Below are positions 2,716-48,086 of a DNA stretch of 64,000 nucleotides, in pieces. The translations under genes and the position numbers were made by a program. Within the stretch, counting starts at the first letter, position 1; each line of letters starts with the position of its first letter. Below the pieces are notes generated by a model. It ran no database searches and was not told the DNA's origin. It saw nothing but the letters and a program-made list of their open reading frames with translations. This DNA is from Phycisphaerae bacterium (lineage in GTDB: Bacteria; Planctomycetota; Phycisphaerae; UBA1845): positions 9,835 through 73,834 of the forward strand of contig DAOQSN010000003.1 in NCBI GenBank assembly GCA_035356615.1, in the 5' to 3' direction.

Positions 2716-5700
2716 CTAGCCACCGCCCCGCGTTGCCTCCTCGACGACGCGGATTTCGTCGTCTGTCAGACCGTAGAGCTCGTAGACAAGCCGGTCGATC
2801 TGTCGGTCGGTGGCGTCGATCTGGCGCTCGAGGGCGGTCCGCTTGTGCGGGGTCTTCGCCGCGGGAAGGGCCTGGTGCAGGTCGAGCATCGTCTGGACGA
2901 GGGTGACGAGGCGGTGGTAGCGTCCTCGCGGGCGCGGGGCCGCACGACCGGGAGGGCAAACCGGGAGACTGCGCGTTTCCTTCAAGACGATCTTCGGAAA
3001 ATCGTCACGTTGAGCGATAGTCGACTTATGCAGGAAATACCAGGACAGAAGTCGGCTGTTAAGGATACCAAGCAAGTACCTGAGATCGGGCGCACCGGGA
3101 AGGGCGAGCACCGATTGCATCGACTTGTTCGTCACGAAGTCTTGTGATACCATGACAGCTTGAATTCGGAATTTCCGGCTGATGAGCTCGCGGAGCAGAA
3201 GCCGAGGTCCGGTGAAGTACCGTTCCGGCTTCGGCTCCGCGAGGGTATCGTCAAACTGAATGAACGCCGGCGGCCCCGGTTCGTAGGTGTATCTGCGCAC
3301 GGTCCCGGTGAACGCCGGGCGCGCGTGTCGGCCCCGCGAACGCCCCGTGAGCGAAAACGGTGTGACGCCTCGCTGGATGTCAGCGAAAGTGCTGAACGGG
3401 CGAGCGACGCTCTCAATCTTGCCGAGGATGGATGTAGCCGCGTCATCTGCGCAGGTCAGATACTCGTCCCTGTTGTGCGCGAGCCACCGCGTGAAGTCTG
3501 CCGCAAGGTAGTCCTCGTCTATCTCCGAGCTCTCCGAAATCCGATGCCGCTTCGGGAACGTTCGGAGTCTGACCGGACACGGCACGGTCCGTGGCCACTG
3601 GAGACGGTCCGCACGCTTGGCCAGGACAAACATAGTCGTGTCAACCCAGGCGCGAAAGACATCGTACGGGAGGTTCACGAAAACTCGCGGATCCGTGGTA
3701 CAAGCGAGCAGCCGACGTAGAGGCGAGAAATCCGCGCCGCTGTACCAGCCGGTCGGGGTGATGAACGCGATCAGCCCCCCAGACTTCGCCAGACGAACCG
3801 CCTGCTCTATGAAGAGGGCGTAGCTGTCCACCCCTGAAGAAACGCCTTCAAAGCGACTTCGCAGATACAGAGACTCAGGCGCGCTGATTGCGGCTCCATA
3901 CGGCGGGTTTCCGATGACCGCGTCGAAGCCGCAATCGGGGTCGGGGGCCCGGGACTGGGGAGTGGGGACTGGGGACTGGGCGCCTGCAACCCGAGCCCCG
4001 GAACCTGAGCCCCTGCCGCCCGGGCCTGACCCCCGAAACACCTCTGGGAACTCAGTCTTCCAGTCGAAGACGTTGATGCGCAGGCGCTCGTCCTCGTCGA
4101 ACATGTTCAATTGCTGCCCGTTGTAGAAGTCCGGGCCGATCAGCGAGTTGCCGCACTTGATGTTGCGGTTCAGGTCGGGCAGGGCCCGTTCGTGGAAGAG
4201 CCGGAGCGTCGAGTCGATCGTCTCGCCGGTCTCGCCCTCCAGCACCTTCAGCAGCAACGACAGCTTGGTCGTCTCGACGGCCTGCGGATCGATGTCCACG
4301 CCGTAGATGTGGTTCAGCAGAATCCGCTTCTTTTCCTGGATGGTGAGGCGCCATTGACCGCCGGCGGCTTGGTAGATGGGAAGCGACGAACGGCGGGAGG
4401 CCTTGTCCGCAGATGACGCAGATTGACGCAGATTACATACCTGTGATGCCGGCTGCTGATCTGCGTTAATCGGCGAAATCTGCGGACCCGATCCGGGCAT
4501 CTGGGCGACGTACCAGTCGCGGTGCCAGTCCAGCAGGTACTGGTACGCGCCCAGCAGGAACGATCCCGAACCGCAGGCAGGGTCGAGAATCCGCAGCCTG
4601 GAAATCGGGCCTAGGGGCTCGGGGTCAGGGGCTGGGCGGGGTTTCTTCGCAGGGCGGCGATGAGCGCGTTCAGGAGTTTTCCCACGCGCTGACAGAGATC
4701 CCAGATCGGCACGACGGCTTCCCGTTTCACCAAGTCGAGCCGCACCGCCAACGTCAGATGAGTCTCCAACTCTGCCAGCGAGCCCCGCGCCATGGAGAGG
4801 TGATGAAGGTAGTCGCCCCGGTGCGTCCGGCTGTGCCCCTCCGCGACGTTCGCCGGAATCGAGACGGCCGCTCGTTGGATCTGACTGGCCAGTCCGAAGC
4901 GCTCCTGCGCCGGCAGCGCTTTCGCCACACGGTAGACCTGCTCCACGAGGTCCATCGCTCTCTGCCACACTTCCAGGTCGCGGTAGTGCTTGACGGCCAT
5001 CGGCCTCGTCTCCCAAACCCCCACTCCCTGACCCCCGACCCCGAGTCCCGAGTCCCGAACCCCGTTCTTCGAGCAGCTTGCCGACCGTGTTCCTCACGAT
5101 GTAGTCGACGATGTAGGTCGGCGTGTAGTACACGCCGCCGGCCTTGCGAACCTCGGGCTTCTCCTCGACCTTGGCGTGGTGGCCTTTCGTCAGGCGGATC
5201 ACCTTGCCCAGGAACTGCTCATAGACGTGCCCCAGAATCTCCGGCGGTAGGACGGAGAACTCGTAGGGGCTGTCGGGGTAGTACAGGCCGCGAAGCACGT
5301 CCTTGAGCACGCGGTCATCAAGTTGCAGGCCCAGTGTCAGCTCATCGATTGCCCCGCGCCCGAACTCAGGTGTGAAGTAGAACAGCCCGGAGTTGTAGCG
5401 TTCATCGGCGCGGCGGAAGATCGCGCCCAGGCGCTCGTAGACCTTGTCCCCGTTGAGCAACCCCTGGAGTTGCCCGTAGCGCTCGATGCCCCGGTCTTCG
5501 CACAGGCGCAGGAAGACGACCCGGTCGATGGTGCGCTGGACGGCAAAGTTGAGGTCGCGGACCGATAAGTCCGGATTACGCAACGCGAAGTTCTGCGCCA
5601 GCATCTCCCGCCAGAGCTCGATCTCCCGGAGAAACTCGGCGTCCACCTCGGCCGTGCCGCGCTTGCGTTTGTTGGATTCGGCGTATTGGTCGAAGGCACC

Positions 5701-6249
5701 CTTAAGGACGGCCTCCTTGGCGAACAAGCCGCTGATCCAATCCCAGTGGGCGGCGTATTGATCGCAGGTGCAGTAGAAGACGCGGGCCGTGGCGGGCTTG
5801 TCCGTTGGCGCAGGGCGGATGCGGCAGTCGTAAACCGCGAACTCCTCGAAGTCCGTCAGGACGGAGAGGGGCAGCTTGCTGGTCCAGGCGTAGCGACGGA
5901 GTTGATAAGCCGCCTCCGGATCGCTACTCAGGGCGACCGCCGGCTTCTTCGCCTCGACGAAGAACTTGCGCGTGCCGCCGATGCGGAAGCAGTAGTCGGG
6001 TGCCTTGGTGGCCCCGCCGATCTTGATGGCGTCCTCGTGGATGACGTCCTTGTAGGCTTCGGCCAGCCCGCCCTCGTTGTCCACGTCCCAGCCGAGGGCT
6101 TCGAAAAAGGGGTCGATGAACTCGCGGCGCACCTGGGTCTCATGGTAGCCTGGCGAGCCATACGCTTCGCGGTTGCGCGCGAAGCGCTCCGCCAGCTCCA
6201 CCACCGTGGCCGGGCAGGGCGATTGCGCTTCGCGCTCTGAGGTGCTCAC
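2716..6249 (-). CDS. Type IIG restriction-modification enzyme: N-terminal PD-(D/E)XK nuclease, gamma-class N6-adenine methyltransferase (Eco57I/BpuSI-like) and TaqI-like C-terminal specificity domain
   Basis: Nuclease motif APDYCF...KFFVEAKKP. GVYYTPTYIVDYIVRNTVGKLL block. Motif I ILDPACGSGSFLLGAY. Motif IV VIGNPPYG. TRD-type LGILNSRLLSWYF. The probable start is GTG at 6249; the longer ORF to 6486 would overlap the kinase gene. The ORF is continuous but contains three palindromic insertions, listed as separate features. Confidence 0.85.
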   Translation of the reverse strand: MSTSEREAQSPCPATVVELAERFARNREAYGSPGYHETQVRREFIDPFFEALGWDVDNEGGLAEAYKDVIHEDAIKIGGATKAPDYCFRIGGTRKFFVEAKKPAVALSSDPEAAYQLRRYAWTSKLPLSVLTDFEEFAVYDCRIRPAPTDKPATARVFYCTCDQYAAHWDWISGLFAKEAVLKGAFDQYAESNKRKRGTAEVDAEFLREIELWREMLAQNFALRNPDLSVRDLNFAVQRTIDRVVFLRLCEDRGIERYGQLQGLLNGDKVYERLGAIFRRADERYNSGLFYFTPEFGRGAIDELTLGLQLDDRVLKDVLRGLYYPDSPYEFSVLPPEILGHVYEQFLGKVIRLTKGHHAKVEEKPEVRKAGGVYYTPTYIVDYIVRNTVGKLLEERGSGLGTRGRGSGSGGLGDEADGRQALPRPGSVAESDGPRGAGLPCGESAAGAGALRTGQSDPTSGRLDSGERRGGAQPDAPGRLPSSPLHGAGLAGRVGDSSDVGGAARLGETGSRRADLGSLSARGKTPERAHRRPAKKPRPAPDPEPLGPISRLRILDPACGSGSFLLGAYQYLLDWHRDWYVAQMPGSGPQISPINADQQPASQVCNLRQSASSADKASRRSSLPIYQAAGGQWRLTIQEKKRILLNHIYGVDIDPQAVETTKLSLLLKVLEGETGETIDSTLRLFHERALPDLNRNIKCGNSLIGPDFYNGQQLNMFDEDERLRINVFDWKTEFPEVFRGSGPGGRGSGSGARVAGAQSPVPTPQSRAPDPDCGFDAVIGNPPYGAAISAPESLYLRSRFEGVSSGVDSYALFIEQAVRLAKSGGLIAFITPTGWYSGADFSPLRRLLACTTDPRVFVNLPYDVFRAWVDTTMFVLAKRADRLQWPRTVPCPVRLRTFPKRHRISESSEIDEDYLAADFTRWLAHNRDEYLTCADDAATSILGKIESVARPFSTFADIQRGVTPFSLTGRSRGRHARPAFTGTVRRYTYEPGPPAFIQFDDTLAEPKPERYFTGPRLLLRELISRKFRIQAVMVSQDFVTNKSMQSVLALPGAPDLRYLLGILNSRLLSWYFLHKSTIAQRDDFPKIVLKETRSLPVCPPGRAAPRPRGRYHRLVTLVQTMLDLHQALPAAKTPHKRTALERQIDATDRQIDRLVYELYGLTDDEIRVVEEATRGGG
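3937..4034 (-). repeat. Family A solo hairpin (no cargo) inserted in frame just upstream of the NPPY motif
   Basis: GGGGTCGGGGGCCCGGG (3937-3953) pairs with CCCGGGCCTGACCCCC (4019-4034). The GGGACTGGGG/GGGAGTGGGG strings are shared with the full copy. It translates as GSGPGGRGSGSGARVAGAQSPVPTPQSRAPDP in the host ORF. Confidence 0.55.
4407..4485 (-). repeat. Family C hairpin (CCGCAGAT...ACGCAGAT arms) inserted in frame in the Type IIG gene
   Basis: CCGCAGATGACGCAGATTGACGCAGAT (4407-4433) is an imperfect inverted repeat of ATCTGCGTTAATCGGCGAAATCTGCGG (4459-4485). It translates as ...ISPINADQQPASQVCNLRQSASSADK... between the conserved DWHRDWY and IYQAAGGQWRLT blocks. Confidence 0.6.
4611..5000 (-). 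CDS. Four-helix-bundle protein (23S rRNA intervening-sequence protein / Avd-like family), nested inside the Type IIG gene in a different frame
   Basis: MAVKHYRDLEVWQRAMDLVEQVYRVAKALPAQERFGLASQIQRAAVSIPANVAEGHSR...YLHHLSMARGSLAELETHLTLA is the textbook sequence pattern of this family. ATG at 5000 follows GGGAGACGAGG. Confidence 0.85.
   Translation of the reverse strand: MAVKHYRDLEVWQRAMDLVEQVYRVAKALPAQERFGLASQIQRAAVSIPANVAEGHSRTHRGDYLHHLSMARGSLAELETHLTLAVRLDLVKREAVVPIWDLCQRVGKLLNALIAALRRNPAQPLTPSP
4614..5064 (-). mobile_element. IVS-like palindromic element (family A, full copy) carrying the four-helix-bundle gene
   Basis: On the gene strand, a G-rich arm (5064->5017, ...GGGACTCGGGGTCGGGGGTCAGGGAGTGGGGG) and a partly complementary C-rich arm (4641->4614, CCCCGCCCAGCCCCTGACCCCGAGCCCC) bracket the cargo ORF. 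Confidence 0.6.
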
Positions 6250-6328
6250 GGCAGGGAGAATAGCAGGCGTCGCGCCGGGCTTCAACGCCTGGGCGACACG
6301 GCGCAGGAGCCAGCGGGAGCGCCGGTTG

Positions 6329-7285
6329 TCACTGTGCCAGTTCGTCCGGCAGATCGGCGAGGAAGTCTTCGAGGGGCAGCAGGCCGGTCTCGGCCAGGTC
6401 GGCTTCGAGTTCCTCGTCCAAGCCGAGGACGGTCTCGCCGGAGGCGGCCAACTCGCCTTCCGGACGCAGCAGAATGGCGCGGGCAATCTCCGCCCGCTCG
6501 ATGAACGTAGGCATGTCGCGCAGCCGCCCGTCCATGTCGCCGGCGCAGCAATCCTCGATCAGACGCGCGACCGACATCGGCAGTTCCGCGCCGGCCGACT
6601 CCCCCGCCCGCGTGCGCAGCAGACCGGCGCGGGTGGGGGCGTCCAGGTTGATCGTCTGGTTCATTTGCGTGGGCACCGGACGGCCTGTGAGTACCCGATG
6701 CAGGGCCGCCCCCAGCCCGAACACGTCGGTCCGCTGGTCCAGCCGCTCCATCCGCACCTGCTCCGGTGCGATGTAGTCCGGGGTCCCCTGAATCTTGGTC
6801 TTGGCCTCTCCCAGCCGCGAGCTTTGCCCGAAGTCGATGAGCTTCACCTGGTCGTTGGGCATCAGCAGGATGTTGCCCGGCTTTAAGTCGGCATGCACGT
6901 ACCCGGCGCAGTGCATGGCGTGGAGCCCCTCGGCCGCCCGGACGAACACCCGCAGCATGTCCGGGATGCCGCGCGGCGCCTTCCCATCGGTCAAGGGCAC
7001 GCCGTCCACGTACTCCATGAACAGCATCGCGCCGCGCAGCCGGAAGCGCTGGCGGATCATCCGCAACTCGTACACCTTGCGAATGGCGGGATGGTCGATC
7101 AGTGACCCGATCGTGTACTCCGCCCGCAGCAGATTGGCTATGCGCACGTCCTCGGGCGACTGAATCTTGACGATCTTAACGGCGTAATCTCGCCCCGTGC
7201 GCATACACCGGGCACGATAGATGCGCGACTGGGCACCCGTCCCGAGCTTCTCTAGAAGCCGGAAGTTTGGGATGTCAAGTGTCAA
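6329..7285 (-). CDS. Hanks-type serine/threonine protein kinase with acidic C-terminal tail
   Basis: Gly-loop LGTGAQSRIY, AVKIV lysine, catalytic HADLKPGNILL, DFG, GTPDYIAPE. Confidence 0.9.
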   Translation of the reverse strand: MTLDIPNFRLLEKLGTGAQSRIYRARCMRTGRDYAVKIVKIQSPEDVRIANLLRAEYTIGSLIDHPAIRKVYELRMIRQRFRLRGAMLFMEYVDGVPLTDGKAPRGIPDMLRVFVRAAEGLHAMHCAGYVHADLKPGNILLMPNDQVKLIDFGQSSRLGEAKTKIQGTPDYIAPEQVRMERLDQRTDVFGLGAALHRVLTGRPVPTQMNQTINLDAPTRAGLLRTRAGESAGAELPMSVARLIEDCCAGDMDGRLRDMPTFIERAEIARAILLRPEGELAASGETVLGLDEELEADLAETGLLPLEDFLADLPDELAQ

Positions 7286-11975: not shown

Positions 11976-12115
11976 CGGGTGGGCCCGGGCCGCCTGGGTT
12001 TCAGCGCTGACCTTGTAGCCGTCCGCTCTGCGCCTTATCCTGCCCGCCATGCGGCCGACTTGCCCCGCAGGCTCGTCGGGAGAGTCGAGTGGACAGGGGC
12101 GCAGGAGTGCTCGCC

Positions 12116-14058
12116 ATGGCCAAGCGGCGAAAGGCCCGTTCCCCCGAGCCCGAGGTCTCAGGCCCCGTGAAGGGCGACTTCATCGCCCCGCCGGAGGCAT
12201 CGGAGACGGACGAGCGCGAGGACGCTCTGCCGCGGCAAGAGGAGTTCTGGCGCCCGCCGGTGCGGTTCGGCAGCGTCCCGGTGGAGAAGGAGCCGCTGGG
12301 CTGGGACCGCCGGCGCGGCTTCCGCAAGCTCTTCCCGCATGTGCCGCTGCCGTTTCAGGTCATCGAGCGGGTGACCTTCGGCCATCCCGAGCTGGAGCCC
12401 AACCGCCTGTTCTGGGGCGACAACCTGCACGTCATGCGGCAGCTTCCGTCGGAGAGCATCGACCTGATCTACATCGACCCGCCGTTCTTTTCCGGCCGGC
12501 AGTACAACGTCATCTTCGGCGACCAGAACGAACTCCGCTCCTTCTCCGACATCCGGGAAGGGGGCATGCCTGGCTACCTCATCTGGCTCAACGCCCGGCT
12601 CTACGAGATGAAACGGCTGCTCAAGAAAACGGGGAGCATCTGTGTTCATCTTGATTGGCACGCGGTGCACTATGCGAGGGTCGAGTTGGACAAGATATTC
12701 GGCCATGGCTGCTTCAGGAACGAGGTCGTCTGGTACTACTACAACAAGATGCATGATCGTCGCAAACGCCTGTTACCGCGAGCACATGACGCGATCCTCG
12801 TGTTCGGTAAGACATCGGAAGCTAAGTACAACCAGGTCGAGATCCCGCTTGAGCAGCCAGTCAAGAGACTCGCTCGAAAGAAAATCGGCGGTCGCGCGGT
12901 CAACGCCCGTGATGAAGACGGCAACCTACTTTACATCACGAAGAGCTCGCGGGCCCTGGATGATGTATGGCGAATCTCAATGCTGCAGCCCGCGGACAAG
13001 ACCTATCGAATTGGTTATCCCACCGAGAAGCCACCGCGACTGCTGGAATGGTTAATCAAAACTTCAGCTACGAAGGGGACACGGTCGCCGATTTCTTTTG
13101 CGGCGGTGGTGTTACGCCATTCGCGGCTCAGGCGCTCGCTCGCCGCTGGATCGCCTGCGACCAGTCGCGGGTGGCGGTGGCGATCACGGCCGACCGCCTG
13201 GCACGCGGGGCAGAGCAGTTGATGCTCGACCACGTGACCGTGCCGATCCCGGACTTCACGATCGAGCACTGGGGGGTGTACGAGTCGCGGCGGCTGGCGG
13301 AGATGCCGCCGGAGCAGTTCCGGGCGTTCGTCCTCCGCTGCTTCGGGGCCGTGCCGGAGGAAATGGACAGGATTAACAAGATTCACAAGATCAGAAACCA
13401 AAATCCTGTAAGTCTTGTAAATCCTGTCCATATTCATGGCTACAAGGGCGCGATACCGGTCTGGGTGGGCGAGCCGGACCAGAAGAAGGGCGTCACCGCG
13501 CAGGATGTGCAGGCGTTCGCCAACGCTATGCGCAAGACGCTCCGCTACCAGCAGGACAACCTGCGCGAGGGGATCATGCTGGCGTGGGCGTTTCGGCCCG
13601 ACGCGCTGGAGGCGGCCGAGCGCCTGCGGCGGCTCGAACAGACGGACCTCAACTTCATCCGCCTGGATATGATCCGCATCGACTCGCCGCGCTTCCGCGA
13701 GCACGTGACGTCGCTGACAACGCAGCACGCAGACTACGAGAACTTCCTGACGTTCGTGCAGGCGCCGAAGGTCGAGGTGGGGTTCAAGCGCGTGGCCGCG
13801 CGGAGCTACGTGTTCGACGTGAGCGAGACGGTCGTGATGAACCCCGGGGCGAAGATCATCAACGTGCAATGGGACTTCGACTACGGCAAACGCTTCTCCA
13901 GTACGCCCGGTTACTCGTTCATCCGCGGGAAGAACAAGGAGGCGCAATTGCAGGCGCAGTACGAGTTCCCCAATGCCGGGAGGCAGCGTATTGCATGCAA
14001 GGTCCAGGATGACCTCGGCGGCGAGGGCCTGTGGACGGCGGAGATTGACGTGGAGTAG
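12116..14058 (+). pseudogene. Beta-class N4/N6 DNA methyltransferase (Type III Mod-like) with a C-terminal PKD-like domain; disrupted by a frameshift near 13060-13070
   Basis: Motif IV IDLIYIDPPFFSG and YPTEKPPRLLEWLIKTS lie in frame 2. Motif I GDTVADFFCGGGVTPFAAQALARRWIACDQS lies in frame 1. The two ORFs (12089-13222 and 12967-14058) overlap. The C-terminus INVQWDFDYG...YEFPNAGRQRIACKVQDDLGGEG resembles a PKD fold. Confidence 0.75.
13365..13429 (+). repeat. Family B solo hairpin inserted in frame inside the Mod gene
   Basis: GGACAGGATTAACAAGATTCACAAGAT ... ATCCTGTAAGTCTTGTAAATCCTGTCC. It translates as MDRINKIHKIRNQNPVSLVNPVHI in the host ORF and is markedly AT-richer than the flanks. Confidence 0.7.
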
Positions 14059-14821
14059 ACAGGATTTACAAGATTAACAGGATTAAGAGAGAGAGAAACA
14101 GAATCTTGTCAATCTTGTGAATCCTGTCCAACCAGGCCGAGCAATGATACGGGATTTACAAGATTAACAGGATTAGGAGAGAGAACAACAGAATCTTGTC
14201 AATCCTGTAAATCCTGTCAAAAAAGAGGGCTCGATGACCATTGACCAGTTGACGGAGAAGGTGATTGGTTGCGCGTACCGAGTTCATAATGAATTGGGGG
14301 CCGGGTTCCTGGAGAAGGTGTATGAGAACGCGCTGCGGATCGAGTTGGCTGAGGCGGGATTGCGCGTGCAGCAACAGCACCCAATTCCGGTGGTATATCA
14401 CGGCGAGGTGGTGGGCGAGTATTTTGCCGATCTGATGGTGGAGGACTGCCTCATTGTCGAACTGAAAGCGGTGCAGAGCGTGGGCAAGGAGCACGAAGTG
14501 CAGTTGGTGAATTACCTGGCGGCGACGGGCATTGATGATGGCGTGCTCATTAACTTCGGCTCCTCGGTCCAGGTGAAACGCAAGTTCAGGCGGTACAAGG
14601 AGCGGGCACCATCCTCGGCGGTCGCGCCGGGCCGCGCACCGGCGGGGACCGGCGCCCAGCCCATCGCCGGGAGCGTGGTTGAGGGGCAGTGAGCAAAGAA
14701 TGGACAGGATTTACAAGATTAACAGGATGAGAAGGAAGTAGAACGGGACCTTCGGGGTCTTGGACGTGACGGGACAGACAGGCTGGACGAATCTGATCTT
14801 GTCGATCCTGTAAATCCTGTC
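14058..14821 (+). mobile_element. Family B hairpin cluster (three copies) flanking a GxxExxY gene, occupying the mod-res intergenic space
   Basis: Hairpins at 14058-14129, 14151-14218 and 14702-14821. All are built from GACAGGATTTACAAGATTAACAGGAT / ATCTTGTCAATCCTGTAAATCCTGTC arms. Confidence 0.7.
14234..14692 (+). CDS. GxxExxY protein (PD-(D/E)XK nuclease-fold family)
   Basis: VIGCAYRVHNELGAGFLEKVYENALRIELAEAGL...PVVYHGEVVGEYFADLMVEDCLIVELKAV...QLVNYLAATG... matches the GxxExxY signature and the D...ELK core. Confidence 0.85.
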   Translation: MTIDQLTEKVIGCAYRVHNELGAGFLEKVYENALRIELAEAGLRVQQQHPIPVVYHGEVVGEYFADLMVEDCLIVELKAVQSVGKEHEVQLVNYLAATGIDDGVLINFGSSVQVKRKFRRYKERAPSSAVAPGRAPAGTGAQPIAGSVVEGQ

Positions 14822-14837
14822 TAATGATGGGACTGCG

Positions 14838-16847
14838 ATGTTCAACCGCTTCGCACAATACGAGGATGCCTTGCGGGACTGGCGCCGGGACGGAATGCCG
14901 GGGCTCAACGCCGAGTCCTACAAGTATATCGAGTTCCTGACTTCACCTGACGACGATCAAGCGCCGCGGGCGGGCACACTCTGGCCGCACCAGTGGGAGT
15001 CGTTTCTGCGGGTGGTGTATGCGCATGAGGTCCTGGGAAAGGGCGAGATCGGGGCCGACGGCCTGCTGCTCAACGTGGTGACCGGCGGCGGCAAGACCGC
15101 CGTCATCGCGGCCATCGTCGCCTGGCTGCGCATCGCGCACAGCGTGCAGAAGTTCGTCCTGCTTTGCCCGAACCTCATCGTGCGCGACCGCCTGGAGGAC
15201 GACTTCGAGGGCGGCAAAGTGTTCAAGGACCGTGACCTGCTCCCGGCGAACAGGCCCGAGGATTTCGTTCTGAGCACCCTGGGTAGCGGGAGGCAAGGGG
15301 GTTGGGCTGACTTGCTGAGCGCAAGCATCGTGCTGGGCAACATCCACCAGTTCTACCAAAGCAACAAGGCCGGACAAAGCAACCTGTCGGCGTTGATGAA
15401 CGGGCCCGGCTTCGCCCTGTTCAACGACGAAGCGCACAACTCACCGGCGCCGGAATACGAGGCCACCCTGTTGCGCATGCGCGAGAAGATCGTCCTGCGA
15501 GTGGACACCACCGCGACGCCCGACCGGGCCGACGGAAAGGCGCCCGATAGCGACATGATCTATGAGTACGGCGTGACCGACGCGCTTGCCGATGGACTCA
15601 TCAAGACGCCGGTGGTCTACCAGCCGGACATCAAGACTGTGGAGTTGACGTACACGGACGCCCGAACCAGCGAGCGGCGCAAAGTCGAGGAGATCGACTG
15701 GGAGGAAGTCGACCGCCTGGGGCTCAGCGCGACGCAGTGGGTGACGGACGACGAACCGATGCGCCAGCAGATGGCCATCGCACTGCGCCGCCTGGAGGAA
15801 CAGGAACGCCGCGCGAAGGGACGCTATCAGCCGATCCTGTTTGTCGTCGCCGTGTGCAAGCTGGACGCCGAGAAGGCGGCGGATACGCTTAACAAGTACT
15901 TCAAGGTCAAGGCGCTGCTGGTGACCGAGGATAGCGACGAGGCCGATCGGCAGAAGGCGCGCGAGCTCGGCAAGGAGAGGAAATCGGGCAAGCCGTATCG
16001 CGCGGTGGTCAGCGTGCTGATGCTGCGCGAAGGGTGGGACGTGCCCGAAGTCGGCGTGATTCTGCTTCTGCGCAAGTTTAGCTCGCGCGTGTACGGTCAA
16101 CAGGTCACCGGGCGGGGGCTGCGGCGGGTTCGCGTCAAGGGTATCGGTGCCGATGAGCCGCAAATCTGCGCCGTTGTGGATCATCCGAAGCTTGAGCACC
16201 AGTGGCTGTGGGACATCTTCAATGCGAAGAAGCGCGAGAACGTCCGCATTGACGACCTGTTTGACGAGACCGAAGACCTGCCGCCTCCGCCGCCCAAGCA
16301 GCAGCTCGACAAGCCGGGACTCGTCATCGACGTTCCGCCCGTCGATCCCTCACTGGTGGACGATGGCGAGTTCGACGTCGGGGACGTGCCTCCGCCCCCG
16401 AAGCCCGTTGAGAACTGGAAGCATGTGCTGGACCGGATCGAGTACCAGCCCACGGTGGTCGAGATCACCAAGGTGGGCATTGCCGGTGTAGTCGGGCAGG
16501 AGCTGGGCGGACGCGGCTGGCGAACAATCCACTCGGCGCCGGACACCGGGGGGCCGGGCGATGCGGCCGCGCGTCCGTCTGACCAGGCCGTGCGGACCGC
16601 CGTGAAGGACAGACTCCTGGACATGGCCGAGGAGTTGACCGTCGAGGCGGGTTACGCCGCTGCATTCAAGGACCGTGTGTACAGCGCGCTGCTCCACCAC
16701 GTCCGGGCCCGGTTCCTGAGCGGCGCTTCCCTCGGGCTTGCCGAGCGCGCGGACGTCGAATTCGCGTGGAAAATGCTGCCGCAGGTCAAGGCGAAGACCG
16801 CGGGGATCCCAGGGCTGATAGCGGGGATCATCGAGTATGGCGATTAG
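14838..16847 (+). CDS. SF2 DEAD/DEAH-box helicase, Type III restriction Res-like but lacking an endonuclease domain
   Basis: Walker A VVTGGGKTAVIAA, motif II LFNDEAHNS, motif III VDTTATP, motif VI-like GQQVTGRGLRR. Confidence 0.8.
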   Translation: MFNRFAQYEDALRDWRRDGMPGLNAESYKYIEFLTSPDDDQAPRAGTLWPHQWESFLRVVYAHEVLGKGEIGADGLLLNVVTGGGKTAVIAAIVAWLRIAHSVQKFVLLCPNLIVRDRLEDDFEGGKVFKDRDLLPANRPEDFVLSTLGSGRQGGWADLLSASIVLGNIHQFYQSNKAGQSNLSALMNGPGFALFNDEAHNSPAPEYEATLLRMREKIVLRVDTTATPDRADGKAPDSDMIYEYGVTDALADGLIKTPVVYQPDIKTVELTYTDARTSERRKVEEIDWEEVDRLGLSATQWVTDDEPMRQQMAIALRRLEEQERRAKGRYQPILFVVAVCKLDAEKAADTLNKYFKVKALLVTEDSDEADRQKARELGKERKSGKPYRAVVSVLMLREGWDVPEVGVILLLRKFSSRVYGQQVTGRGLRRVRVKGIGADEPQICAVVDHPKLEHQWLWDIFNAKKRENVRIDDLFDETEDLPPPPPKQQLDKPGLVIDVPPVDPSLVDDGEFDVGDVPPPPKPVENWKHVLDRIEYQPTVVEITKVGIAGVVGQELGGRGWRTIHSAPDTGGPGDAAARPSDQAVRTAVKDRLLDMAEELTVEAGYAAAFKDRVYSALLHHVRARFLSGASLGLAERADVEFAWKMLPQVKAKTAGIPGLIAGIIEYGD

Positions 16848-17187
16848 CAAACACGGCGTGTACACCAACCCCGCGAAGAGCCCGTGGAACTTCGAGCGCT
16901 ATCACAGCGATCTCGAGCGACGGATGATGGATCGCCTTGAGCATGACCCGCACGTTGTCAAGTGGATGAAGCGCCACGGCATTACCATCCCCTGGATCGA
17001 CGGACAGAGGCACCAGCGCCGGTACGTCCCTGATTTCCTCGTGGAGTATGAGGGAGGCGGAAAAGCGGTCATCGAGATCAAGGATCCGAGCCGCCTGGAC
17101 TCCAACGACGTCCAGCGCAAGCGCAGAGCGGCGGAGATATGGGCCAGGCAGCGGACTATGGAGTACGTCCTGGCGACATGCGAGTAG
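16837..17187 (+). CDS. Small TnsA-N/restriction-endonuclease-like PD-(D/E)XK nuclease
   Basis: YHSDLERRMMDRLEHDPHVVKW...RRYVPDFLVEYEGGGKAVIEIKDP gives the E...PDF...EIK arrangement. It overlaps the helicase gene by 11 nt. Confidence 0.7.
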   Translation: MAISKHGVYTNPAKSPWNFERYHSDLERRMMDRLEHDPHVVKWMKRHGITIPWIDGQRHQRRYVPDFLVEYEGGGKAVIEIKDPSRLDSNDVQRKRRAAEIWARQRTMEYVLATCE

Positions 17188-47573: not shown

Positions 47574-48086
47574 CGTGTCACCTCCATTGTTCACTTCCCC
47601 CCCCCATGCCGGGCGAGACACACAATCGCCTCCCGGACGGCCGGGGGCAAGCTCGGCCACGCTTTCACCACCGCCGCAAGCTGGGGGTCCGCCGCTTCCG
47701 TTCGGGGTCCGTCCGGTTCCCGAGGGGGGTCCGCCGGGGCCGGTTTTCTGCGCCCAACTGCTGACAGTTCTGCTGACGCGCGGGCTGGGGGTTTCGTAAG
47801 TCCTTGTCCCGTAACGTCTTGTGGCGCCGGGCATCGGTCTACGGAACCGAAGGTTGGAGGTTCGAATCCTCCGCGGCGCGATTTCAACGGTTTGTGATTG
47901 ACGCGGGTGGATCTCTACGAGGGGTGATTCTGCGCGCAGAGCCGGCGGCCCAGGGGCAGGCTCGCTTGACTCGGGACGCCGGCGGGGAGGCAGTGTGCTG
48001 CCTGGGGTCGGGGGGCGGCCCGCGGGGTACATTCGGACCTGGCGTCACTGCCCGGTGACGGCGGTGGCGGCGGGAGCAGGGACGCT

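Follow-up and report, generated by a model that had tools for sequence, protein, structure and literature searches.

Palindromes in a Type III-like restriction-modification operon of a Phycisphaerae bacterium are probably copies of a widespread hairpin element with a GxxExxY nuclease gene as cargo

The origin of ribosomal RNA (rRNA) intervening sequences (IVSs) has been a question since about 1990. In Planctomycetota, Verrucomicrobiota, Bacteroidota, Acidobacteriota and related groups, few small genes without a known function are as abundant as those for GxxExxY and four-helix-bundle proteins. The Rickettsia palindromic elements (RPEs), reportedly described by Ogata et al. in 2000, are said to be palindromic repeats that are inserted in frame in protein-coding genes and add a tolerated peptide. 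The IVS of Coxiella burnetii is a selfish element of 428 nt whose terminal inverted repeats pair into a 28-bp stem, with two or three tandem GACAGAT heptamers in front of an S23p four-helix-bundle open reading frame (ORF) and cleavage by RNase III at the first repeat (PMC4990558). Here we describe a family of hairpins in a 64,000-nt stretch of DNA from a Phycisphaerae bacterium (assembly GCA_035356615.1, contig DAOQSN010000003.1, positions 9,835 to 73,834; hereafter the window, whose own numbering is used below). Four copies, together with a GxxExxY nuclease gene, lie within a Type III-like restriction-modification (R-M) operon. We favour, and hold to be probable, an explanation in which these palindromes derive as copies from a widespread selfish element, a hairpin of the IVS-stem kind whose loop may range from 9 nt to a whole gene, with GxxExxY as its characteristic cargo and an incidental link with R-M.

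The four hairpins were located by palindrome search and folding, and all lie within 1.5 kb. Hairpin 1 is a cargo-less palindrome of 69 nt (13363-13431; ATGGACAGG...CCTGTCCAT) in the inter-domain linker of the methyltransferase Mod, and is translated in frame as MDRINKIHKIRNQNPVSLVNPVHI inside ORF 12967-14058. Hairpin 2 (14058-14128) takes the G of the mod stop codon TAG (14056-14058) as its first base, and hairpin 3 (14149-14218) is its tandem duplicate, the two making up a 90-nt tandem duplication with 90% identity over 73 nt. The end of hairpin 3 is separated from the ATG of the GxxExxY gene (14234-14692, + strand) by 15 nt that include a Shine-Dalgarno-like GAGGG. Hairpin 4 (14703-14821) has the same arms around a 59-nt loop with a small stem of its own, and ends 16 nt before the res ATG at 14838. 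A preliminary description of this DNA had recognised these inverted repeats, including the in-frame copy in Mod, the tandem pair at the mod stop and the enlarged-loop copy before res, as well as the GxxExxY gene between them, and the palindromes, arm scan, folding and profile matches reported here bear it out. It missed the three-unit structure of the arms, a frameshift in mod and a related GCAGAT-type hairpin at 4405-4487.

A scan of the window with the arm pattern ACAGGATTTACAAGATTAACAGGAT, allowing up to three mismatches, gave seven matches, all in 13367-14728, where 100 shuffles led us to expect none; an eighth arm at 14796-14820 was recovered by a looser scan. Each arm consists of three tandem 9-nt units (GACAGGATTN) of the form ACARGATTN, in most cases with a G in front. 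Stem lengths are 25-29 bp, and the arms are 83-89% complementary. Folded as RNA, hairpins 1 to 4 have predicted energies of -33.5, -36.5, -27.0 and -51.5 kcal/mol; their z-scores lie between -5.2 and -6.6, and none of 200 shuffled sequences folded as well. An Rfam search of the window at gathering thresholds found only two tRNAs, and a more permissive one of 13300-14900 yielded nothing above threshold, its weaker matches being mainly to models of long-hairpin microRNA precursors. The hairpin belongs to no described RNA family. The second tRNA match (47824-47880) is short, with 31.8 bits against a gathering score of 29, and may be a fragment or an unusual tRNA.

That the hairpins are insertions is shown by homologous operons from other metagenomes. 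The operon at 12089-17187, in a window of about 66% G+C, comprises mod (Pfam N6_N4_Mtase), res (Pfam ResIII helicase) and a short overlapping TnsA-like ORF, and this gene order is kept in nine homologous operons (among L126-L131 and L212-L215). In seven of the nine, mod and res are only 3-6 nt apart; the 779 nt that separate the mod stop from the res ATG in the window are missing in L126, L128, L131 and L212-L215. The Mod linker is likewise empty in most relatives, being eight residues long (FGAVxEExxxG-IHGYKG) in 96 of the 103 homologues that have the flanking motifs and 27 residues long in the window. At the DNA level about 12 nt have given way to the palindrome of hairpin 1, which lengthens the linker by a net 57 nt. 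A Mod homologue in a different genomic context (L131, 78% identical) carries the same hairpin family at the same left junction, GAGGAA followed directly by ATGGACAGGATT; its mod-res junction is empty, with a gap of 6 nt, so the intragenic and intergenic insertions must be separate events.

The Mod linker is an insertion hotspot. Other repeat-like inserts occupy it in three further homologues (P0005, P0011 and P0014), and in L129 (583-2307) a complete gene for a REP-associated tyrosine transposase (RAYT, a Y1 transposase), with flanking repeats like repetitive extragenic palindromic (REP) sequences, is read in frame within it. P0024 is also listed among the proteins with other inserts in this linker. 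The mod-res junction has received other cargo too. In L130 (7870-8466) it holds a DUF4258 gene and a 72-aa ORF, probably a toxin-antitoxin pair, the only repeats there being two weak inverted repeats with 76-77% complementarity; in L129 it holds a 295-aa ORF and a DUF5131 gene. Within the window, the inserts that lie in ORFs (one in mod and three in a Type IIG ORF of 1256 codons) all keep the host frame open, which suggests that only tolerated insertions survive, as with the RPEs.

The product of the GxxExxY gene matches, over its full length, Pfam PF13366 (PDDEXK_3 nucleases; E = 1.5e-42, 145 bits, cutoff 22) and TIGR04256 (GxxExxY; E = 2.1e-42, 144 bits, cutoff 35). Residues G24, E27 and Y30 of the signature and the catalytic D66, E76 and K78 are invariant in 35 sequences. 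An AlphaFold2 model of the protein (mean pLDDT 87) was matched by Foldseek to lambda-exonuclease-like proteins, Cas4 and the Hjc junction resolvase with probabilities of about 1.0 and TM-scores of only 0.4-0.5. The fold is thus modelled as PD-(D/E)XK, with a loose resemblance to minimal nucleases. The family is very large and multi-copy, 7968 of 8000 scored candidates being members at E <= 1e-5.

The association of gene and hairpin was examined around the 80 closest metagenomic relatives of the window's GxxExxY protein. Units of the present kind (type B; at least two within 300 nt) occur at 24 of the 27 most similar relatives and at none of the remaining 53; their background is 0.15 per 600 nt. 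Units of a related form, C[AG]CNGAT (type C; for example ACGCAGATGA, ACACGGATGA and ACACAGATGA), flank 43 of the 80, the background being 1.07 per 600 nt. In 63 of 66 cases a relative and its nearest protein neighbour share the same arm type. The coupling extends to the proteins themselves: among the 120 closest, 56 end in a C-terminal tail encoded by an arm, left arms giving RQD(LQD)n and right arms NPVNPV, and the stop codon is often supplied by the arm. Cassettes are built as arm-gene-arm, hairpin-gene-arm or hairpin-gene-hairpin, the window having the last form, and the cargo ATG follows 10-35 nt after an arm whose units contain AGGA. In L058, L082 and L100 the gene lies exactly between arms. 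The hairpins and the GxxExxY gene therefore form one element family, with GxxExxY as the characteristic cargo of this hairpin lineage. A literature search found no description of this association. The four-helix-bundle ORF was absent from the 119 type B hairpin loci listed in the genome scan described below.

The window's own copy of the gene departs from its relatives at its 3' end. It ends in an atypical Pro/Ala/Gly-rich tail of 25 aa (ERAPSSAVAPGRAPAG...) encoded by GC-rich DNA (14600-14692); most close homologues stop inside a hairpin arm (...KKRQD*) instead. Between the GxxExxY gene and hairpin 4, an insertion or substitution of about 100 nt seems to have taken place.

Some nine type B GxxExxY cassettes were flagged by a motif search as directly downstream of thiC on the same strand (L134, L135, L139, L144, L147, L149 and L151; also L148 and L154), and a Pfam census likewise gave nine ThiC matches. 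The neighbours in L148 and L154 have C-termini unlike those of the other seven. The hairpin starts at the thiC TAG in L147; in L148, L149 and L154 the TAG at which it starts belongs to an upstream ORF whose C-terminus is different. These cassettes could reflect old vertical inheritance or a site preference.

To see how far the hairpin extends, one genome per species was scanned for exact matches to a degenerate pattern that fits all eight arms. It was found in at least 119 genome stretches, against about 0.5 expected by chance (our own arithmetic, from about 20.5 specified bases and 1.2e12 positions). The matches listed come from more than a dozen bacterial phyla; the groups represented are Acidobacteriota, Bacteroidota, Chloroflexota, Planctomycetota, Verrucomicrobiota, Kiritimatiellia, Lentisphaerae, Pseudomonadota, Nitrospirota, Spirochaetota, Gemmatimonadota, Chlamydiota, Armatimonadota, Desulfobacterota and others. 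Several independent metagenome-assembled genomes (MAGs) of the archaeon Methanoperedens carry it, as do the cultured Thioalkalivibrio denitrificans ALJD, Spirosoma terrae KCTC 52035 and Thiobaca trueperi DSM 13587. Among the matches listed there are 71 arm pairs, with loops of 9-1233 nt, most of them 9-120 nt and some 390-570 nt. Loops are alike within one genome and unlike between genomes. Several 8-kb loci of other genomes hold three to five copies; the window holds four in its 64 kb.

Coding tandem repeats among the pattern matches (for example L013, L024 and L070) were set aside as non-hairpins. These three and about 31 viral loci (for example L220, L249 and L273) have head-to-tail runs of 9-nt units, (ACAGGATTN)n, with no inverted partner, some of them likely coding, such as the GLT-type repeats in Neobacillus and giant-virus MAGs. 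The arm pattern matched 62 viral sequences in all, 31 of them tandem-repeat-like and probably unrelated. A phage vector was considered and rejected, as only seven of the 62 are real hairpins and none of the 62 comes with a GxxExxY gene.

This distribution bears on one alternative, that the palindromes are generic REP-like intergenic repeats, mobilised in trans or kept for host functions such as mRNA stability or supercoiling, with GxxExxY as an unrelated neighbour. Most copies elsewhere are indeed cargo-less and intergenic and lie beside ordinary genes, no target-site duplication was found, and a RAYT with its own REPs occupies the same Mod linker in L129. Gene and hairpin are, however, very tightly coupled physically, with arms overlapping the stop codon of 56 of the 120 close GxxExxY homologues, and the arm type tracks the protein clade. 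Ordinary REPs, moreover, are species-specific, whereas the 25-nt arm described here is the same across phyla and in archaea. We regard this alternative as improbable.

The conservation of the arms was analysed for signs of what maintains them. At the variable positions of the units (N and R) no covariation between arms was found, 101 of 240 cells being complementary compared with 102.3 +/- 6.8 when partners were permuted. Nor was there a bias of G.U over A.C pairs on the cargo sense strand (22 versus 17, p = 0.52). Unit positions outside AGGA are as conserved as AGGA itself. Because there is neither covariation nor G.U bias, it is the sequence of the arms that is conserved, one unit after another, and not their ability to pair. 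Such unit-wise conservation suggests that a protein, or some other reader of specific sequence, recognises the units. Three other readings were weighed and rejected: CsrA-binding sites (the unit lacks the consensus spacer and the element occurs also in archaea), mimicry of the 16S rRNA 790 loop (a resemblance of only 9-11 nt) and integron attC sites (no integrase and no core-site pattern).

Signals in the transcript were also sought. A scan of 13200-15000 predicted no sigma-70-type promoter and no intrinsic terminator. The flanks usually prolong the palindrome outward, with a T-run to the left and an A-run to the right; with the T-run in front of the stem and the A-run behind it, these flanks are not terminator-like. 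A TAG abuts 65 of 190 arms, and at least ten of these close an open reading run of at least 100 codons, as in mod. These features would suit a purely RNA-level, IVS-like module in which RNase III cuts the stem and thereby frees or stabilises the cargo mRNA, or in which translation of the cargo is coupled to the upstream ORF; the stem-base TAG and the AGGA units would act as stop codon and ribosome standby sites, and the module would spread by recombination or horizontal transfer with no nuclease involved. Cleavage of the GACAGAT-bearing Coxiella stem by RNase III (PMC4990558), the spacing of the cargo ATG from the arm and the flanks of the stem all speak for it. The arms, however, show neither covariation nor a sense-strand G.U bias, positions outside AGGA are equally conserved and most hairpins have no cargo to express, so that a module of this kind seems to us unlikely.

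The state of the host operon was assessed in order to judge its part in the association. The N-terminal reading frame of mod (12089-13222, + strand; motif IV and target-recognition region) covers positions 1-182 of the N6_N4_Mtase profile, and the C-terminal frame (12967-14058, + strand; motif I FCGGG and C-terminal domain), which holds hairpin 1, covers positions 177-219 and is 72-78% identical to homologues of 610-635 aa. A frameshift near 13057-13062, upstream of hairpin 1, lies at an A4 run that is apparently 1 nt short. Frame 2 reads ...LLEWLIK, where the alignment of the N-terminal frame with full-length homologues ends, and the homologous sequence resumes in frame 1 as NFSYEGDTVADFFCGGG. 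The frameshift is judged to be real rather than an assembly error because the sequence is identical in six assemblies from different samples. It parts motif IV from motif I, so that the locus lacks the intact Mod that a Type III Mod-Res pair would have, and it may reflect simple decay or a phase-variable site. The other ORFs are intact: res (14838-16847, + strand; Pfam ResIII and PADLOC REase_III) encodes the helicase part of the restriction enzyme, and the ORF at 16837-17187 (+ strand) its TnsA-like PD-(D/E)XK nuclease part (Tn7_TnsA-like_N; positions 732-825 of 871 of REase_III). Res of this R-M family is always split in this way, into a helicase ORF of about 670 aa and a TnsA-like ORF of about 116 aa with an 11-nt overlap. 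A homologous system was also seen inside a Mu-like prophage (L128).

Among the homologous operons, mod is also 5'-truncated in L131 and L129. A dead mod is present at three of four loci with a linker insert (the window, L129 and L131) versus none of six without, and cargo at the mod-res junction likewise at three of four versus none of six (p = 0.033 by our own Fisher exact arithmetic). With mod frameshifted here and other insert-bearing homologues truncated, the operon appears to be decaying, and the local pile-up would be better accounted for if insertions collect in an R-M operon that is dispensable, moves horizontally and is falling into decay. If the operon itself is decaying, the R-M link would reflect incidental tolerance and not targeting.

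The preliminary description had gone further, proposing as a rule that hairpin-bounded elements with a small gene invade R-M or other defence systems, a rule that a lack of genome-wide association would refute. On this account such elements prefer R-M and defence loci, perhaps as anti-restriction or regulatory modules. The window itself is suggestive, as every copy of three hairpin families, and each of the two cargo genes, falls within two R-M loci that make up about 14% of its length; at least four kinds of element, the RAYT gene included, have struck the Mod linker in six of 103 homologues, and other small cargo has entered the mod-res junction in L129 and L130. Insertion into the linker and the junction is indeed borne out by the empty sites, but a general rule is not. 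Searched by phmmer with the Mod, Res and Type IIG proteins of the window, only one of 121 neighbours of GxxExxY relatives and none of 215 hairpin neighbours in other genomes matched. Pfam censuses assigned 143 families to the 121 neighbours of the 80 GxxExxY relatives and 216 families to 146 neighbours of hairpins in 80 genome loci, mostly housekeeping in both cases; the commonest was ThiC, and others included dehydrogenases and regulators. PADLOC matches among neighbours were to generic kinases and methyltransferases, no PADLOC model was matched by the GxxExxY or the four-helix-bundle protein, and the mod genes that carry inserts are mostly dead. Enrichment near defence genes is thus not seen at the cross-genome level, where the outcome is the one that the preliminary description had said would refute its rule, and targeting of defence genes in general is not supported; of the alternatives discussed here we give this one the least credence, and take the R-M link as incidental tolerance. 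Co-orientation of neighbours (72% upstream, 66% downstream) was judged to be the usual operon baseline and was not used as evidence.

If the palindromes are copies of a selfish hairpin element with GxxExxY as cargo, its elements would have inserted at two tolerated sites of this operon, the flexible Mod linker, in frame, and a 3-nt mod-res junction, which would thereby have become the present two hairpins, GxxExxY gene and further hairpin. The units of the arms would be sequence-specific recognition sites rather than mere pairing partners, and the element-encoded nuclease might bind or cut them and so spread or maintain the hairpins; hairpin and nuclease would then correspond to a REP sequence and its RAYT transposase. 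Once transcribed with the operon, the stems of about 27 bp could serve as RNase III-type processing sites rather than as terminators, in which case the cargo would be expressed by read-through transcription from the host and res would still be transcribed.

Several observations weigh against this explanation. The six assemblies of the strain are identical, with no insertion polymorphism and no mobility to be seen. Direct repeats of 2-9 nt at five boundary offsets of 64 hairpins did not rise above permutation expectation, giving no sign of target-site duplication. There are no more than four copies in 64 kb of the Phycisphaerae genome, and among the matches listed a GxxExxY ORF adjoins an arm at only seven of 119 hairpin loci, so that few loci carry the gene. 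The nine cassettes downstream of thiC, across divergent sequences, suggest long residence and not frequent movement. That arm type goes with protein clade is compatible with a cargo protein that recognises its arms, yet co-inheritance accounts for it just as well. In Coxiella, GACAGAT-type units accompany a four-helix-bundle ORF, so recognition by the cargo protein cannot be taken as established. Finally, in the absence of a G.U over A.C bias, RNA-level selection on the stem is not detectable.

The second R-M gene of the window carries comparable elements. This Type IIG gene (2716-6486, - strand) remains open for 1256 codons despite three in-frame, stop-free inserts. A repeat search found one of these, at 4405-4487, to be a cargo-less type C hairpin with GCAGAT-type arm units, the type that flanks the more distant GxxExxY genes. 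A G-rich hairpin lies at about 3935-4040, just before the NPPY motif. An element of the four-helix-bundle family of 23S rRNA IVS proteins occupies 4600-5056 (- strand; TIGR02436, E = 5e-34), with its gene (4611-5003) nested between inverted arrays of G-rich tandem units, each about 7 nt long, and its 3' end overlapped by these arrays. The parallel drawn in the preliminary description between this element and the GxxExxY locus holds in that respect. Many four-helix-bundle homologues end in repeat-encoded C-terminal tails such as PETRNPKPETRNPKP.

A broader proposition, which we put forward tentatively and as possible rather than probable, is that hairpins with tandem-unit arms (GACAGAT, GACAGGATT, ACGCAGATGA and G-rich heptamers) form a single pan-prokaryotic class of mobile element with exchangeable small cargo, either GxxExxY or a four-helix bundle. 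The 23S rRNA IVSs would then be only its rRNA-resident members, and the PD-(D/E)XK cargo a new kind of element-mobilising enzyme that recognises the units. A cargo of this sort would, if real, explain why the 25-nt arm is conserved from Phycisphaerae to Methanoperedens.

A clade of GxxExxY proteins travels with a specific cross-phylum hairpin whose unit structure matches that of the RNase III-cut Coxiella IVS stem. GxxExxY and four-helix-bundle proteins thereby both gain a testable context, with arm DNA or RNA as candidate substrates. Annotation is affected as well: the hairpins add in-frame peptides, provide host genes with stop codons, break up operons and extend the C-termini that are called for cargo proteins. 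As to R-M biology, the local pile-up would mark a degenerating operon and not a defence-targeting mechanism.

Each of the known systems shares some features with these hairpins. Like the RPEs, hairpin 1 adds an in-frame peptide to the Mod linker, and the Type IIG gene gains such peptides from its own hairpins, but the sequence family is unrelated, the host range here is far wider and a nuclease gene is associated. As with miniature inverted-repeat transposable elements derived from DDE transposons, such as Correia/NEMIS, small elements bounded by inverted repeats far outnumber the version that carries a gene; here, in contrast, there is neither target-site duplication nor transposase, and the variable interior shows no conservation from one genome to the next. 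REP/REPIN-RAYT systems are alike in several ways: short palindromes are dispersed between genes with no target-site duplication, a protein gene is flanked by its own hairpins, the hairpin type tracks the protein lineage, and some cassettes, such as those downstream of thiC, appear long-resident. The protein, however, is a PDDEXK_3 nuclease and not a Y1 HUH transposase, the one true RAYT being that of the unrelated L129 insert; the arms are built of 9-10-nt units in tandem and are not headed by GTAG or CGTC; and the same arm sequence is common to many phyla, with a gene family that is very large and multi-copy.

The 23S rRNA IVSs of Coxiella and Leptospira share many features with the present elements. 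In both, a stem of about 28 bp arises from terminal inverted repeats, the 5' arm consists of two or three tandem short units in variable number, and a small ORF in the loop starts just after the arm; the IVS, too, is regarded as selfish. The Coxiella unit GACAGAT, compared here by its published description and not by alignment, is very close to the GACAGGATT and ACACAGATGA units, and the other R-M gene of the window holds a four-helix-bundle ORF between inverted unit arrays. The elements described here differ in lying outside rRNA, whereas an IVS occupies helix 25 or 45 of a 23S rRNA gene, with no conserved 23S rRNA motif in 277 loci and no rRNA in the window, in having a PD-(D/E)XK nuclease rather than an S23p four-helix bundle as the cargo of the hairpin, and in that many hairpins are cargo-less and one is translated as part of a protein. 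Since the Coxiella stem has tandem GACAGAT-like units around its ORF, the hairpins of this operon look, by analogy, like IVS-type elements that reside outside rRNA and carry a different cargo.

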